A stretch of DNA of 64,000 bases, from the NCBI GenBank assembly GCA_035288845.1, contig DATDZB010000009.1:8814-72813 (forward strand), in the 5' to 3' direction. The position numbers and the translations under genes were made by a program. The notes under the pieces are model-generated. The model saw only the letters and a list, made by a program, of their open reading frames with translations. It was not told where the DNA came from and made no database searches. Each line of letters opens with the position of its first letter. Position 1 is the first letter of the stretch. This DNA comes from Candidatus Nanoarchaeia archaeon. Its GTDB lineage: Archaea; Nanobdellota; Nanobdellia; SCGC-AAA011-G17; GW2011-AR18. Of this stretch, positions 8,431-40,069 are shown piece after piece.

Positions 8431-8467
8431 AGATAAACTTATAAATATTAATAAATTATAAATTAAA

Positions 8468-8842
8468 ATGGAAGTCCCTAAATCATTAAGAATTTGGTAT
8501 GTAATACACTTTTTCGCAGATATTTTATTTGCAATACCTTTATTTATATTTCCAGAATATACATTAAGTTTACTAGGTTTTACAACAATTGATGTTGTTA
8601 CAGCAAGATTAGTGGCAGCTGCTTTAATTGGAATAGGAACTGCTTCGCTATTACAAAGAAATAATAAAATTGAATCTTTCCAAAGTACTTTAACAATAAA
8701 AGTGATTTGGTCAGTTACAGCAATTTTAGGATTAATAATTTCAATATTAACAAATAAAGCACCAATGTTAACTTGGTTAATAGTATTAATATTTGTAATA
8801 TTTTCAGGAACTTGGATTTATTACAAGATAAAATTAAAATGA
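8468..8842 (+). CDS. small integral membrane protein (about 4 TM)
   Basis: Four hydrophobic segments. Its stop overlaps the next start in an ATGA junction. Confidence 0.5.
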   Translation: MEVPKSLRIWYVIHFFADILFAIPLFIFPEYTLSLLGFTTIDVVTARLVAAALIGIGTASLLQRNNKIESFQSTLTIKVIWSVTAILGLIISILTNKAPMLTWLIVLIFVIFSGTWIYYKIKLK

Positions 8843-9498
8843 AAAATAAAATTGGAACAATTATAGGATTATTAGCAATAATAACAAGTCTAATATTAAT
8901 TGGAATAATGGCAAAGATAATTATACCACAAATCCCCAATCATTTAATAATATTTTTAATTTCAATACCAATTGGAATATTATTTATGGATTTTGTATCT
9001 GGTCTAGCTCATTGGGCAGGAGATACTTGGGGAAATGAATATTGGCCAATATTGGGAAAATCATTCATAAGACCATTTAGAGAGCACCATACAGATCAAA
9101 AAGAAATTACTAAACATAATTTTATTAAAACAAACATAAACAATGCAATAATAACAATTCCATTTTTAATATTGGCAATAAACTTAGCACTCTCAGATTT
9201 AAAAAGTAATTTTTTAATAGGAAGTACTTCATTAGTAGTAGCATTACTGGCTTTATTTACAAATCAAATTCACAAATGGGCACATACAAAAAGAGTTAAT
9301 AGATTCGTAAGATATTTACAAAAAAAGAGATTAATATTATCACCAGAAAATCATAAAATACATCATACAAAACCACATACAGATTATTATTCAATAACAA
9401 ACGGTTGGACTAATAAATTATTATACAAAATAAAATTCTACAGATTATTGGAATACCTTATTAGTAAATTAACTGGCGCAACCCCTAGAGATTATTAA
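8839..9498 (+). CDS. PEDS1/TMEM189/CarF-family membrane lipid desaturase
   Basis: Start moved to the in-frame ATG at 8839 (ATGA overlap). 'GLAHWAGDTWG', 'FIRPFREHHTDQ', 'FTNQIHKWAHT', 'HKIHHTKPH' and 'ITNGW' match the His-box blocks of human TMEM189/PEDS1 almost residue for residue. Confidence 0.85.
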   Translation: MKNKIGTIIGLLAIITSLILIGIMAKIIIPQIPNHLIIFLISIPIGILFMDFVSGLAHWAGDTWGNEYWPILGKSFIRPFREHHTDQKEITKHNFIKTNINNAIITIPFLILAINLALSDLKSNFLIGSTSLVVALLALFTNQIHKWAHTKRVNRFVRYLQKKRLILSPENHKIHHTKPHTDYYSITNGWTNKLLYKIKFYRLLEYLISKLTGATPRDY

Positions 9499-10919: not shown

Positions 10920-11540
10920 ATGGCACAAAGTAAACCTATAAAGATTAATGGAAAATTAAAACCAATACAAGAATTGCCAAAATTAAGTCATTATGATAAT
11001 TTAGCAGATAATGTTAGAAAATGGTACCTAAAAAATGTTGCTGCAAGTGTTCTATGTATTGGTATAACTGCTCACACTCTAAAAGAACAATATGATAATA
11101 ATCCAAGTCTTGCTTATTTAGGAGGAGCAGCTTCAGTAGCAGGAGTTTTATTAGGTTATAAACAAGTTACAGATTTTAGGAAAAAATTTAGAAAAAATCC
11201 TTTAACAAATCAGCTAGAAAGAGCAAAATTAGTAGAGGCAGATGGAAATGAATTAGTAAGACACCCAATGTATTCAGCTTATGGTTTAGTACACATAGGA
11301 ATGATGTTAATGTTTCCTTCATTCTTAAATTTAACTGCTCAAATTGGAAATTTAGTTTTATTAGATTTGACTGCAACAAACGAAGAAAAAGCTTTGCAAA
11401 AAGTGTATGGGGATCAATATAAAAAATATAAAGAAAAAACTCCTAAGTATATTCCCCCTTTAAGTAAAGTGCAAGATAGAGTTAATTCATATTTAATTCA
11501 ACATCCAAAATTAGAAAATTTAGTAAATTTATTTAAATAA
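10920..11540 (+). CDS. ICMT/PEMT-family membrane methyltransferase
   Basis: 'LVRHPMYSAYGLVHIG' (RHPxYxG motif) set among TM segments. Confidence 0.6.
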   Translation: MAQSKPIKINGKLKPIQELPKLSHYDNLADNVRKWYLKNVAASVLCIGITAHTLKEQYDNNPSLAYLGGAASVAGVLLGYKQVTDFRKKFRKNPLTNQLERAKLVEADGNELVRHPMYSAYGLVHIGMMLMFPSFLNLTAQIGNLVLLDLTATNEEKALQKVYGDQYKKYKEKTPKYIPPLSKVQDRVNSYLIQHPKLENLVNLFK

Positions 11541-12929: not shown

Positions 12930-14765
12930 ATGGAAACAAGCACATATGTAATTGATACTTCTGTTATAATAGAAAGATTAGTATCTCAATTTATTAAAAA
13001 CAAAAAAATAGTAGGAAAAATATTAATTCCAAAAGCAGTTCTAGCTGAATTAGAACATCAAGCAAATACAGGACAAGAAATAGGTTTTCTAGGTTTAGAA
13101 GAGTTGCAAACATTACAAGATTTAAATAAAAAGGGAAAAATTGAACTGCAATTTGTTGGTGAAAGGCCTAATTTATATCAAGTTATTGAAGCAAAAAGAA
13201 GAGGAGAAATTGATGCTTTAATAAGAGATATTGCTTATGCTGAAGGAGCAATATTAGTAACAGCAGATAAAGTTCAATCAGAATCAGCAAAAGCTCTAGG
13301 CATGGAAGTTATGTATTGTGGTAGAAAAGAATTAGCAGAAAAATTAGAAATGGAAAAATATTTTGATAATATAACTATGTCTGTTCACTTAAAAGAAGGT
13401 TGTACACCGCAAGCAAAAAAAGGTGGACCTGGTAATTGGAAATTAGAAGAAGTAGGAAAAGAAAAATTAACACAATTACAAGTTGAAAACATGGCTAAAG
13501 AAATTGTTGAAAGAGCAAGAATTGAACCAAATGCTTTTATCGAAATTTCAAGACCTGGATCAACAATTGTTCAATATAAAGATTATAGAATTGTAATAAC
13601 TAAAACTCCTGTTTCAGATGGATGGGAAATTACATCCGTAAAACCAATAAAAGTTTTAAAAATTGAAGATTATAATTTACCAGATAAAATTGCAGAAAGA
13701 GTAAAAGCAAAAGCAAGAGGAGTAATAATTGCAGGAACTACAGGTTCAGGTAAATCAACATTTGCTCAATCTCTAGCTGAATATTATGCAGCAAGTAAAT
13801 TTGTAACTAAAACAGTAGAAAGTCCAAGAAGTTTAATATTATCTGAATCAATAACGCAATATAGTAAAAATTTAGCTAGTAGTGAAGAAATCCATGACAT
13901 TTTATTTTTAGCAAGACCAGATTATATTATATTTGATGAAATGAGAGACACACCAGATTTTGTATTATTTACCGATTTAAGATTAGGCGGTTCTAATGTT
14001 CTAGGAGTTTTACATGCAGCAACACCAATAGATGCAATTCAAAGATTTATTGGAAGATTAGATACAGGAATGATTCCGAGTGTTTTAGACACTTTATTAT
14101 TTATTGACAAAGGAACTGTATCTCAAATTTTAACAGTTCAAATGATAGTTAAAGTTCCTTCAGGAATGACAGAAGCAGATTTAGCACGTCCAGTAATTGA
14201 AGTTAAAGATTACTTAAATGATAAATTAGTATTTGAAATTTATAGTTATGGTGAAGAAACAGTAGTTATTCCAGTTCAAGAAGGTGGAGAATTTGTAAAT
14301 CCAACAAATAGGTTGGCAGAAAAACAATTAGAAAGAGAATTAAAACAACATGTAGATCCAGTTAAAGTAAAAATGCTTTCAAGTGGAAGAGCAGAAATTT
14401 ATGTTCCTGCAGAAGAAATTGCAAGAATAATTGGAAAAGAAGGAAAAAATATTGACAAACTAGAAAAACAAATGGGAATAAAATTGACTGTTAAAGAATT
14501 AGTAGATAATGGTTCTATTGAAGATGAAGAAGATTCAAATAGAAGTCCTATAAATTATAAAATAGAAGAAAGTAAAAAAGCAGTTGTATTCAAATTAGCA
14601 CCACAATATTCTGGTGCATCAGCAGAGTTACATGTTGACAATCATTTCTTATTAGCTACAACAGTAGGGAAAAATGCTGAATTAAAAATTAATAAAAAAT
14701 CTCAACTAGGAAGAGAACTTCTAAATGATTTAAATAAAGGTAGAAAAATAGAAATTAGAATTTAA
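12930..14765 (+). CDS. PIN-domain / PilT-like ATPase / KH-domain protein
   Basis: N-terminal PIN ('YVIDTSVII...'), Walker A 'GTTGSGKST', Walker B 'IIFDEMRD' and a C-terminal KH ('IARIIGKEGKNIDKLEKQMG'). Confidence 0.8.
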   Translation: METSTYVIDTSVIIERLVSQFIKNKKIVGKILIPKAVLAELEHQANTGQEIGFLGLEELQTLQDLNKKGKIELQFVGERPNLYQVIEAKRRGEIDALIRDIAYAEGAILVTADKVQSESAKALGMEVMYCGRKELAEKLEMEKYFDNITMSVHLKEGCTPQAKKGGPGNWKLEEVGKEKLTQLQVENMAKEIVERARIEPNAFIEISRPGSTIVQYKDYRIVITKTPVSDGWEITSVKPIKVLKIEDYNLPDKIAERVKAKARGVIIAGTTGSGKSTFAQSLAEYYAASKFVTKTVESPRSLILSESITQYSKNLASSEEIHDILFLARPDYIIFDEMRDTPDFVLFTDLRLGGSNVLGVLHAATPIDAIQRFIGRLDTGMIPSVLDTLLFIDKGTVSQILTVQMIVKVPSGMTEADLARPVIEVKDYLNDKLVFEIYSYGEETVVIPVQEGGEFVNPTNRLAEKQLERELKQHVDPVKVKMLSSGRAEIYVPAEEIARIIGKEGKNIDKLEKQMGIKLTVKELVDNGSIEDEEDSNRSPINYKIEESKKAVVFKLAPQYSGASAELHVDNHFLLATTVGKNAELKINKKSQLGRELLNDLNKGRKIEIRI

Positions 14766-37699: not shown

Positions 37700-38956
37700 A
37701 TGAAAGAAAAAACAATATTTTTATCTTTAATTTTTGTATGTTTAACAATATCATTTTTATTAATAGGACCAGTTATAACTGGAAATTTTATTCTAAATAG
37801 AAATTTAGAATCAACAAGTTATGATCAAATGTTTTCCATATTTAGACCTAGATCAACACCTTCTGGTTGTTTTATAGATATGGATTGTCAAAGTGGAGAA
37901 TATTGTGGGAGTGGGGGGGTATGTAGACCTCAAGGACAATTAGGACAAAGATGTTTTTTAGATTCACAATGTCGTTCTGATGTTTGTTCATTATTAGATC
38001 CTATTTCTGGAGTAAGAACTTGTCTTGAATCAGGTTTAGGTGTAAGTGAGTCTTGCATATTAAATAAACAATGTAATTCAGGAGCTTGTCTAAATAATAA
38101 TTGTGCAATTGGCAATTTAAATAATGGAGATTCATGTGTTAACGATTTGCAATGTAAATCAAGATTCTGTAACTTAATTAATGACAATAGATGTGCTCCA
38201 AGCAATTTATTAAAAGAAGGTATGACTTGTTCAAATTCAAGAGAATGTAGAGGTAATTATTGTAGTATAGCTAAATCAATATGTTTAGAAAGAAATAAAC
38301 TATTCATAAATGGAGAAAAATGTTATGATAATGGAGAATGTAGATCAGGTAGGTGTTACCAAAATAGATGTGGACCAGTTAAAAGAGATGGCAGTGGTTG
38401 TACAATAGATAACGAATGTTCATATCTTAGTTTCTGTTTAAACAACATATGTACAGTAATGCATACAGTTCAAACTGGTTCAGCATGTCAAAACCCAAAG
38501 CAATGTATATATGAGCCTTGTATAAATGGAATATGTACTCAAACATGGTTACAAGATGGACAAACATGCGATTATGATACAAATTGTTTATCTGGAGTAT
38601 GTGCAAATAATATTTGTGAACCTAGGGAAGTTCTTAATTTAAATGATCCTTGTTCTAAAGATTTACAATGTATTAGTCATACGTGTGCAAATAGTATTTG
38701 TATAATACAAAATTCTTTACAAGGGGGATCAACTTGTCAAAACAACAATCAATGTCAAACAAAAATATGTGAAAATAATAGATGTGCTTTATTTAGATTA
38801 GAGGGAATTGGAAGAGTATGTTCATCGCACTTTGAATGCAGATCTGGTTTATGTCAAAACCATATTTGCCTTGCAAGTTATTTAAATAGAGGAGAACAAT
38901 GTACAATACATGCACAATGTCAATCAAATAAATGTAGAAATGGCGCTTGTGCTTAA
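37700..38956 (+). CDS. secreted cysteine-rich repeat protein (about 12 tandem 4-Cys modules)
   Basis: N-terminal TM/signal 'IFLSLIFVCLTISFLLIGPVITG', then repeated 'G-x2-C-x5-C-x-S-x2-C-x3-5-C' modules, e.g. GEKCYDNGECRSGRCYQNRCG, GQTCDYDTNCLSGVCANNICE and GEQCTIHAQCQSNKCRNGACA. Confidence 0.75.
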   Translation: MKEKTIFLSLIFVCLTISFLLIGPVITGNFILNRNLESTSYDQMFSIFRPRSTPSGCFIDMDCQSGEYCGSGGVCRPQGQLGQRCFLDSQCRSDVCSLLDPISGVRTCLESGLGVSESCILNKQCNSGACLNNNCAIGNLNNGDSCVNDLQCKSRFCNLINDNRCAPSNLLKEGMTCSNSRECRGNYCSIAKSICLERNKLFINGEKCYDNGECRSGRCYQNRCGPVKRDGSGCTIDNECSYLSFCLNNICTVMHTVQTGSACQNPKQCIYEPCINGICTQTWLQDGQTCDYDTNCLSGVCANNICEPREVLNLNDPCSKDLQCISHTCANSICIIQNSLQGGSTCQNNNQCQTKICENNRCALFRLEGIGRVCSSHFECRSGLCQNHICLASYLNRGEQCTIHAQCQSNKCRNGACA

Positions 38957-38961
38957 TAAAA

Positions 38962-39564
38962 ATGTTAAATGCTTTCATTAATAATTATTATTTAGAAAAT
39001 AAAAGAATATTAAAAACAAAATTCATAAAAGCAAAACCATTTCCTTATTTAGTATTAAAAAAATTTTTCAAAGATGAACTTATAAATAATTTAGCAAAAG
39101 AATTAAAAAAGGAAAACTTCCAAAAACAAGAATCAGATTTATTTTCATTTTCACAAACAAATGATTTAGAAAATTCAAATAATAAAGTAGTAAAAGAATT
39201 TTATAATTTTATTAACTCAAATAAACTTAAAAATTATGTTGAAGAAATAACTGAAATTAAAGCTTACAACAAAATAGACGTTTCTGCATTTATTTACACA
39301 GATAAAGACTATCTTCTGCCTCATGATGATAGGCTTGAAACAAGAAAGATTGCTTATGTATTAAACTTATCAAAAGATTTTACAAGATTAGATGGCGGTT
39401 CCTTAGATTTTTTCAAAAATAATAAAGCTGTAAAAATAATTCAGCCAACATTTAATACATTTACAATATTTAAAGTAATAAAAAATAAAACATATCATCA
39501 AGTTTCTGAAGTATTAACAAATAAGGAAAGATTAAGTATTGCAGGATGGTTTAATAATGATTAA
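38962..39564 (+). CDS. 2OG-Fe(II) oxygenase, Tpa1/Ofd1/OGFOD1-type catalytic (N-terminal) domain
   Basis: The track start is TTG; the ATG is at 38962. 'FPYLVLKKFF', HxD 'LLPHDD', 'RKIAYVLNL', 'GGSLDFF', distal His 'YHQVSEV', 'RLSIAGWF'. Confidence 0.8.
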   Translation: MLNAFINNYYLENKRILKTKFIKAKPFPYLVLKKFFKDELINNLAKELKKENFQKQESDLFSFSQTNDLENSNNKVVKEFYNFINSNKLKNYVEEITEIKAYNKIDVSAFIYTDKDYLLPHDDRLETRKIAYVLNLSKDFTRLDGGSLDFFKNNKAVKIIQPTFNTFTIFKVIKNKTYHQVSEVLTNKERLSIAGWFNND

Positions 39565-40069
39565 CAAGATTTATAATAATAAAGATACAATAAATCAAAT
39601 AAAATTGGTACTAGAAAAAGAAGGAAATATTCAATTACAAAATTTCTTAATAGACTTACCAAAAATCAAAGTTAAGCTAAAAGAAGTTTATATACCGCAA
39701 TTACACAAATATAGATTTAATAATTTTAAAATAAATAAAGAAATAAAAGAATTCATAGAAAAAATAATAAATAAAAAATTAATTTCATCAAAAGTTTATG
39801 AATTTAAACATACAGATTACACCTTAATTAATGATAATATAAAAGAAAAAGAAGGGTATAAAATAATATTAGACTTAACGAAAAATTGGAATGAAGAAGC
39901 AAATGGTTATACTTCATTTATAAAAAATAATGAAGAAGTATTCAGAATAAATCCAGCTTATAATTCATTAACAATAATTAAAACAAATAAAAATATGAAA
40001 AGCTTTGTAAAATATGTAAATAATAAAGCTAAAGATAATAAAAGATTCTTTATTGAGATTAACGTTTAG
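39557..40069 (+). CDS. Ofd1/Tpa1 C-terminal (non-catalytic DSBH) domain-like protein
   Basis: ATG at 39557 overlaps the upstream stop by 8 nt. 'YEFKHTDYTLI', 'ILDLTKNWNEEANGYTSF', 'NSLTII', 'SFVKYVNNKA'. Confidence 0.6.
   Translation: MINKIYNNKDTINQIKLVLEKEGNIQLQNFLIDLPKIKVKLKEVYIPQLHKYRFNNFKINKEIKEFIEKIINKKLISSKVYEFKHTDYTLINDNIKEKEGYKIILDLTKNWNEEANGYTSFIKNNEEVFRINPAYNSLTIIKTNKNMKSFVKYVNNKAKDNKRFFIEINV

Follow-up and report, generated by a model that had tools for sequence, protein, structure and literature searches.

Within the window (the whole 64,000-nucleotide stretch of DNA analyzed here), the forward strand carries a two-gene unit in which a gene for a four-helix membrane protein (P0002; 8468..8842, 124 aa) is followed by a gene for a CarF/PEDS1-type membrane di-iron lipid desaturase of the PF10520 family (P0001; 8839..9498, 219 aa), identified through Pfam, NCBIfam, sequence alignments and an AF2 model. 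The two reading frames share an ATGA stop/start overlap (8839..8842, same strand), with the TGA stop of the upstream gene at 8840-8842 and the ATG of the desaturase at 8839-8841, an arrangement indicative of translational coupling. This overlap had been singled out in the original prediction for this DNA; it is present here and recurs, with the same junction, AAATTAAAATGAA, in a second genome of the same genus, Candidatus Woesearchaeota archaeon RIFCSPHIGHO2_02_FULL_29_10 (hereafter G001; 1.2 Mb, 95% complete). In G001, the unit lies on a 231 kb contig, encodes a 127-aa four-TM protein (62% identical to P0002) and a 214-aa desaturase (~52% identical to P0001), and is flanked by the same genes as in the window, namely those for AspRS and a SpoU-type methylase. 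An alternative start of the desaturase, the TTG at 8773, would add 22 residues; we prefer the ATG at 8839 because the G001 orthologue begins at the same ATGA junction. The 37 nt intergenic region in front of the unit (8431..8467, forward strand) includes in its sequence a TATA-like TTATAAAT at 8439-8446, that is, 22-29 nt ahead of the ATG of the four-TM gene, which is a possible archaeal promoter of the gene pair; the genome is 73% A+T. A scan of the region for sigma-70 promoters and terminators detected nothing above chance and no terminator between the four-TM gene and the desaturase. Farther downstream, a PEMT-domain protein (10920..11540) was considered as a phospholipid N-methyltransferase partner of the desaturase and rejected, given that its best score is with isoprenylcysteine methyltransferase-like proteins and that the corresponding region of G001 has not kept it.

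The open reading frame at 8839..9498 is intact, and its product falls within the CarF/PEDS1 (TMEM189) branch of PF10520, a family of membrane di-iron desaturases. The Pfam match to PF10520 (Lipid_desat; E-value 5.6e-56, 189.8 bits, cut-off 26.4) spans residues 48-218 of the protein and positions 2-174 of the 175-position profile. The translation contains the blocks GLAHWAGDTWG, FIRPFREHHTDQ, FTNQIHKWAHT, HKIHHTKPH, ITNGW and LTGATPRD, which had been proposed to match CarF/PEDS1 block for block. We aligned the protein with the 281-aa CarF of M. xanthus (locus L070), duck PEDS1 and a Dictyostelium homolog, the latter two picked through cluster names, and this residue-by-residue comparison bears the proposal out, all the histidines being aligned at equivalent positions. 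Specifically, H58, H83, H84, H145, H149, H172, H175 and H176 are the eight universal histidines of the family (H78, H103, H104, H164, H168, H191, H194 and H195 in M. xanthus CarF numbering), and H93 aligns exactly with CarF H113, the ninth, PEDS1-specific histidine. The essential Asp is represented by D62 in HWAGD (His+4) and the essential Phe by F80 in FREHH (His-3), both equated with the mouse residues D100 and F118 through spacing alone. Thus, each of the 11 residues described as essential in CarF/PEDS1 (with the residue roles taken from PMC9131029) is found at the equivalent position. The conservation of these positions among 343 relatives is nearly complete: the eight universal columns are unchanged in 342-343 of the sequences, the single exception being one Ser in the H58 column, D62 and F80 are invariant (343/343), and the H93 column holds His in 331. 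Most of the sequences with another residue in the H93 column form one subclade, the only named members of which are Planctomycetota; these sequences had been tried as a FAD4 outgroup and were discarded once their planctomycetal affinity became apparent.

The identity of the desaturase to M. xanthus CarF, Leptospiraceae, Dictyostelium and duck PEDS1 sequences is 40-47%. Against the NCBIfam equivalog model for CarF (NF045946), it scores 199 bits, below the cut-off of 500. In a control run, M. xanthus CarF passed with 571 bits, and duck PEDS1 (215), the Dictyostelium homolog (232) and the Leptospiraceae protein (230) all failed, which implies that the cut-off marks out Myxococcaceae orthologues rather than activity, so that the failed test is uninformative on function. 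Four transmembrane helices are predicted (residues 4-31, 33-64, 95-119 and 125-149; AF2 pLDDT 94.5, pTM 0.88), in agreement with the hydropathy profile. A sequence search of the PDB returned no relative of the desaturase, the best-probability match in a fold search against the same database was the di-metal hydroxylase Scs7p, which was non-significant, and a second, weak Pfam match was to FA_hydroxylase (E-value 3.7e-5). Both desaturases of this genus lack the conserved N-terminal Y..R..E motif. The window desaturase further departs from positions that are at least 85% conserved by A50M, E97K, G100I and C185S, and the G001 copy shows more departures at conserved positions, R81I among them. Judging from these substitutions and the missing motif, the specificity of the enzyme may have shifted.

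The same fold and di-iron chemistry could accordingly serve another reaction, directed at another position or another lipid and yielding no vinyl ether, for example, a FAD4-like trans-delta-3 desaturation in the acyl chain of a glycerol-headed lipid, or desaturation at some other site along an isoprenoid chain. This would be in line with the presence in PF10520 of plant FAD4, an enzyme of different regiospecificity (PMC9131029), with the lack of both the N-terminal motif and E97 in the genus proteins, and with the FA_hydroxylase and Scs7p similarities, weak and non-significant as these are. We nevertheless consider such a change of reaction unlikely in view of H93: CarF H113 (mouse H131) is essential and is found in the myxobacterial, Leptospira and metazoan enzymes, whereas this position is usually occupied by Arg in plants, and the His is missing in the alphaproteobacterial homologs that fail to complement carF (PMC9131029). 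Furthermore, as described below, the desaturase groups in the tree with M. xanthus CarF and with Leptospiraceae homologs, the type members of which complement carF (PMC9131029).

The host is a small-genome archaeon of the Woesearchaeota type (DPANN), and the contig is archaeal. The contig carries the split rpoB'/B'' and rpoA'/A'' genes along with those for aEF-2 and aEF-1α, and the desaturase gene is located 34 kb from the archaeal RNA polymerase operon. The GC content is uniform along the window (25-31%, ~27% overall) and closely similar in all contigs of the assembly (27-29%). The assembly itself consists of 556 kb (0.56 Mb) in 14 contigs, at 70% completeness and 0.5% contamination; together with the 1.2 Mb of G001, this size upholds the earlier view of the host as a small-genome archaeon. 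A tRNA with a long insertion was also detected on the contig, by a covariance model alone.

The phyletic distribution of PF10520 in archaea is extremely patchy. The domain is present in only 2 of the 61 close relatives analyzed, both of the window's genus, and in 3 of 401 genomes drawn evenly from the phylum, the other two of which come from a single other family. In a scan of species-representative genomes, four of the best 80 loci bear archaeal titles, two from Woesearchaeota MAGs (one of these being G001) and two from MAGs labeled 'uncultured Methanosarcinales'. The latter two loci are syntenic with that of Woesearchaeota MaH-04nov19-52, which suggests that these MAGs are probably DPANN as well. 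In the phylogenetic tree (IQ-TREE, 65 rows, LG+C20+F+G4), the DPANN sequences group with five unnamed metagenome proteins in a single clade (support 92/90) that represents at least six genomes. This clade belongs within a 33-row clade (91/95, in a tree that lacks labelled FAD4 sequences of plants and alphaproteobacterial homologs as outgroups) that additionally includes Myxococcota (M. xanthus CarF among them), Leptospiraceae, Patescibacteria, Silvanigrellaceae, Acidobacteriota and Planctomycetota. PEDS1 proteins of eukaryotes comprise a clade of their own (98/96*), apart from that of DPANN. In the profile search and phylogeny that had been suggested for placing the gene, the sequences that surround the DPANN clade are bacterial CarF proteins, with eukaryotic PEDS1 separate. 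Because the DPANN clade is nested within the bacterial CarF diversity, the gene entered DPANN from bacteria via horizontal transfer and has been retained there since. The simplest reading of the tree is a single transfer from bacteria to DPANN, after which the gene was either inherited vertically and lost many times or passed on among DPANN lineages.

The scattered distribution and the bacterial affiliation of the closest named relatives might also be taken to indicate that the gene is an artefact of binning, i.e. that it resides on a stray bacterial contig, or that it is a functionless, decaying remnant of a recent transfer. These explanations are hardly credible. Bacterial misbinning had been named beforehand as a circumstance that would undo the prediction, and what we find instead is a contig that bears the RNA polymerase operon and translation-factor genes of an archaeon, uniform GC, with that of the desaturase gene equal to that of the genome, and the same gene pair with the same flanks in the 95%-complete G001. 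As for decay, the frame is intact and all catalytic residues are retained in two species in which the proteins have diverged to about half identity, with synteny and the ATGA junction conserved; membership in a DPANN-specific clade of at least six genomes argues in the same direction.

The upstream protein of the unit, P0002, is predicted to adopt a four-helix bundle (AF2 pLDDT 96.2). It gave no match to Pfam or NCBIfam profiles and no significant hit in a fold search against the PDB; PF26941, precomputed for two of its homologs, was not recovered in our Pfam search. The 69 homologs that we detected come from Woesearchaeota, Patescibacteria and Bacteriovoracaceae and are 44-62% identical to P0002; the gene is present in 12 of the 61 relatives, as opposed to 2 for the desaturase. 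The neighbors of these homologs, inspected on four public contigs and in four of the relatives, are mutually unrelated and never include PF10520; reciprocally, none of the other PF10520 loci has a P0002-type gene within 4 kb. These observations imply that the four-TM gene existed on its own before the pairing: it is a widespread stand-alone DPANN/CPR gene that is joined to the desaturase only in this genus, where the desaturase gene probably came to sit downstream of it in the common ancestor. The coupling noted originally is therefore genuine as far as the overlap is concerned, but it does not extend to a family-wide partnership, and we rejected the role of a dedicated desaturase subunit as a general rule, given the unrelated neighborhoods in Bacteriovoracaceae, Patescibacteria and other Woesearchaeota. 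The coupling has outlived considerable divergence, which allows for a functional link within the genus, and an accessory-subunit role of the four-TM protein is accordingly possible but unsupported.

We then examined the complement of lipid genes in the four PF10520-bearing DPANN genomes, where the absences rest mainly on G001, the assembly that contains the window being 70% complete. None of the four encodes GGGP synthase (PcrB). As to the upstream enzymes that would supply plasmanyl precursors for the aerobic plasmalogen pathway (FAR, GNPAT, AGPS or ElbD, plus PEDS1), the searches covered the PlsC/GNPAT-type acyltransferase (PF01553) and PS decarboxylase, and both are likewise missing from all four genomes. 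The UbiA-type prenyltransferase (DGGGP synthase) is absent in the window's genus and present in the other PF10520-bearing family. By contrast, all four genomes retain a CarS-like protein (CDP-archaeol synthase) and a CDP-alcohol phosphatidyltransferase, of which this genus has one. In the window's genome, the CarS-like protein reaches 110 bits against the model for CDP-archaeol synthase, under the equivalog cut-off of 148, and the CDP-alcohol transferase shows its best, though weak, resemblance to PgsA/ClsA-type models. No recognizable route to ethanolamine lipids and no cytochrome b5 were found in the genus. PF07993 was tried as a marker of fatty acyl reductase and dropped as non-specific, with matches in all 14 control genomes. 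Given the missing GGGP and DGGGP synthases and the retained CarS-like and CDP-alcohol transferase genes, the genus would be unable to build an ether-lipid core and yet able to re-activate and re-head one. This pattern fits the scavenging lifestyle that is documented for cultured DPANN (for example, bioRxiv 10.1101/2023.12.06.570485).

Because the genus lacks GGGP and DGGGP synthases, PlsC and PS decarboxylase, the desaturase most likely acts on ether lipids scavenged from the host, the substrate being, in our proposal, an ether-lipid core of host origin that is re-headed in the symbiont. The original suggestion that the enzyme may modify scavenged lipids is thus compatible with the missing core-lipid genes. 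The same gene complement bears on the reaction. The genome has a single CDP-alcohol transferase, and its affinity, however weak, to PgsA/ClsA-type enzymes lends some weight, along with the lack of an ethanolamine-lipid route, to the chemistry outside the vinyl-ether class that was considered above; conversely, with no acyltransferase and no acyl lipids predicted, an acyl-chain desaturase would be difficult to accommodate. With regard to the source of the substrate, an archaeon that lives on a bacterial host or prey could take up 1-O-alkyl-2-acyl (plasmanyl) phospholipids and convert these to true plasmalogens, with the enzyme working on its original substrate. The enzyme derives from bacteria and has changed little at the conserved positions, its nearest relatives come from predatory or episymbiotic Myxococcota, Bdellovibrionota/Silvanigrellaceae and Patescibacteria, and some DPANN have been argued to be episymbionts of bacteria with bacterial lipid-related genes (Castelle et al. 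2021, PMC8204110). This scenario nevertheless appears quite improbable, considering that CDP-archaeol synthase is kept in all four PF10520-bearing DPANN genomes, which points to lipids of the archaeal type, and that there is no acyltransferase for remodelling. Archaeal diethers are favored over bacterial plasmanyl lipids as the substrate, the former at well short of an even chance and the latter as an unlikely candidate.

Two further observations point to exposure to oxygen. A pair of 2OG-Fe(II) oxygenase genes is located in the window, 30 kb from the desaturase, and there are also open reading frames that bear motifs of peroxiredoxin and thioredoxin reductase. The RIFCSPHIGHO2 label in the name of G001 presumably refers to the 'high O2' sample series from the Rifle aquifer. 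By analogy with M. xanthus CarF, the Leptospira enzyme and animal PEDS1, the desaturase would draw on O2 and reducing equivalents, with a di-iron center ligated by histidines, to remove hydrogens from the C1'-C2' position of a chain in ether linkage, which is predicted to give a vinyl-ether (alk-1'-enyl, plasmalogen-like) lipid. Overall, we place slightly better than even confidence in the reading under which a CarF/PEDS1-branch enzyme of bacterial origin, encoded on a DPANN chromosome, makes a vinyl-ether lipid, most likely from host-derived ether lipids. The characterized PEDS1 substrate is 1-O-alkyl-2-acyl-sn-glycero-3-phosphoethanolamine, whereas in archaeal lipids the stereochemistry of the glycerol is opposite and the chains are methyl-branched; with no route to ethanolamine lipids in the genus, both facts count against this explanation, as do the lack of a cytochrome b5 there and the changes at conserved positions of the genus proteins. 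A further, tentative step, which we regard as rather doubtful, would be that, in the presence of oxygen, members of the clade make vinyl-ether lipids ('archaeal plasmalogens') from host-derived isoprenoid diethers, the bacterial enzyme having been re-purposed to the opposite stereochemistry. The coupled four-TM protein might then help in the reaction, and the product might act as a sacrificial antioxidant or the reaction as a membrane-remodelling step.

The original prediction described an ether-lipid desaturase in a small-genome archaeon as unexpected. CarF is absent from archaea according to the 2019 survey of Gallego-García, as summarised in PMC9131029; that review itself likewise describes CarF/PEDS1 or the plasmalogen pathway as absent from Archaea; and a 2025 preprint reports no evidence of a plasmalogen pathway in Archaea (bioRxiv 10.1101/2025.10.10.681575). 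A full-text literature search retrieved no paper that ties PF10520 or plasmanylethanolamine desaturase to DPANN or Woesearchaeota. The enzyme family and its chemistry are known; what is new is its intact and maintained presence on archaeal chromosomes. At least six DPANN genomes possess a PEDS1-type gene with the full set of catalytic residues, so that the published distribution of the family has to be amended. The finding also provides a testable case of a lipid-scavenging symbiont that would retain an enzyme to tailor borrowed ether lipids, and an O2-dependent desaturase implies that these Woesearchaeota encounter and use O2. Should the substrate be an archaeal diether, the product would constitute a new lipid class, not described in Archaea, and the transfer would amount to a natural experiment in which a lipid enzyme crosses the divide between bacterial and archaeal lipids.

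Among the characterized systems, the plasmanylethanolamine desaturase CarF of M. xanthus (the NF045946 reference) is the obvious term of comparison. It shares with the window desaturase the PF10520 domain, the four-TM layout, the nine histidines, the Asp and the Phe, about 40-46% identity over the domain and the same 33-row clade. The differences are in the length, 281 aa against the 219 aa of the window desaturase, which has neither the GYS..R..E segment at its N-terminus nor the tail at its C-terminus; in the scores on the CarF model, 571 against 199 bits; and in the setting, the window desaturase having an archaeal host and no CarR/CarQ light-response context. Animal PEDS1/TMEM189 (duck, UniRef100_A0A8C3GNA8, P0248) and the amoebozoan homologs (Dictyostelium, Balamuthia) are ~45% identical to the window desaturase over residues 35-217, have all catalytic residues in common with it, and reach comparable scores on the CarF model (215-232 vs 199 bits). 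The eukaryotic PEDS1 enzymes differ in that they use cytochrome b5, a protein that we did not find in the window's genus.

Plant FAD4, the trans-delta-3 desaturase of phosphatidylglycerol, which was compared by its description, likewise belongs to PF10520 and has the eight universal histidines, but FAD4-type proteins usually carry Arg at the CarF H113 position, where the window desaturase has His, and do not complement carF (PMC9131029). Counterparts in archaea are the other PF10520 genes of DPANN. The copies from the second PF10520-bearing family differ from those of the window's genus in that they keep the N-terminal motif and are located beside genes for a Cys-rich secreted protein and SerRS rather than next to the P0002-type gene; the respective genomes also encode a UbiA prenyltransferase and, in one case, cytochrome b5, neither of which is present in the window's genus. 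The PF10520 proteins of Woesearchaeota RIFCSPHIGHO2_02_FULL_29_10, MaH-04nov19-52 and the two 'uncultured Methanosarcinales' belong, with the window desaturase, to one and the same clade (92/90).

The 4-TM gene (window 8468-8842, + strand), which overlaps the CarF/PEDS1-type (PF10520) desaturase gene by ATGA to form a two-gene desaturase unit, encodes a member of a well-conserved, uncharacterized family of approximately 125 aa proteins with the invariant residues D18, P24, L25, S60, K78, A85, F112 and W116. This family is common to Woesearchaeota, Patescibacteria and Bacteriovoracaceae and hence spans two domains, the carriers being small-celled episymbionts and predators; its gene context is not conserved between the window and the homologous loci examined (L004-L007 and L010-L013).

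The same unit is present in a sister genome of the same genus (G001), where three additional ORFs (265, 205 and 658 aa; locus L003, 3818-7344) separate the AspRS gene from the 4-TM gene. These ORFs are missing from the window, in which the corresponding gap is only 37 nt; the difference represents a lineage-specific insertion or deletion adjoining the desaturase unit. At 10920-11540 (+ strand) the window also encodes a membrane protein of 206 aa that contains a methyltransferase domain of the PEMT/ICMT type (PF04191, 28.5 bits). Among the NCBIfam models this protein scores highest against isoprenylcysteine O-methyltransferase, with 44.6 bits, which is below the cut-off; it has no counterpart at the corresponding G001 locus. 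Other features of the window include a gene (12930-14765, + strand) whose 611-aa product unites PIN, T2SSE-type ATPase and KH domains, and a full-length, 131-nt match to the Rfam tRNA model RF00005 (53221-53351, - strand; 51.8 bits), which was not called by ARAGORN and is probably an archaeal tRNA containing an intron.

Among the PF10520 relatives, one subclade (P0224, P0249, P0277, P0309, P0241, P0254, P0265, P0270 and P0281) lacks the ninth histidine, equivalent to H113 of CarF, and carries R, S or C at this position; its named members come only from Planctomycetota. Judged from sequence by the published ninth-histidine criterion (PMC9131029), these proteins may not be plasmanylethanolamine desaturases, and one of them bears the name 'CarF family'. 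Many metagenomic PF10520 proteins in the match list of desaturase homologues bear the JGI name 'ubiquitin-conjugating enzyme E2 variant', an annotation artefact that stems from the human Kua-UEV1 fusion transcript. The DPANN-clade desaturase is also present in two MAGs titled 'uncultured Methanosarcinales archaeon' (L016, CAYIEX010000027.1; L020, CAYJTE010000043.1), in a context that matches Woesearchaeota MaH-04nov19-52, where the desaturase gene is preceded by one for a pilin-like protein and followed by those for a Cys-rich secreted protein and SerRS; these taxonomic titles of the two MAGs are probably wrong.

Two overlapping ORFs with 2OG-Fe(II) oxygenase and Ofd1_CTDD domains (window 38947-40069, + strand; PF13661, E 1e-24; PF10637, E 1.5e-10) represent a second O2-dependent enzyme of this small genome. 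No cytochrome b5 domain protein was detected in the genus of the window; one (59 bits) is encoded in another PF10520-bearing Woesearchaeota genome (G217:C1:405146-405364), and cytochrome b5 is the type of electron donor that serves eukaryotic PEDS1.
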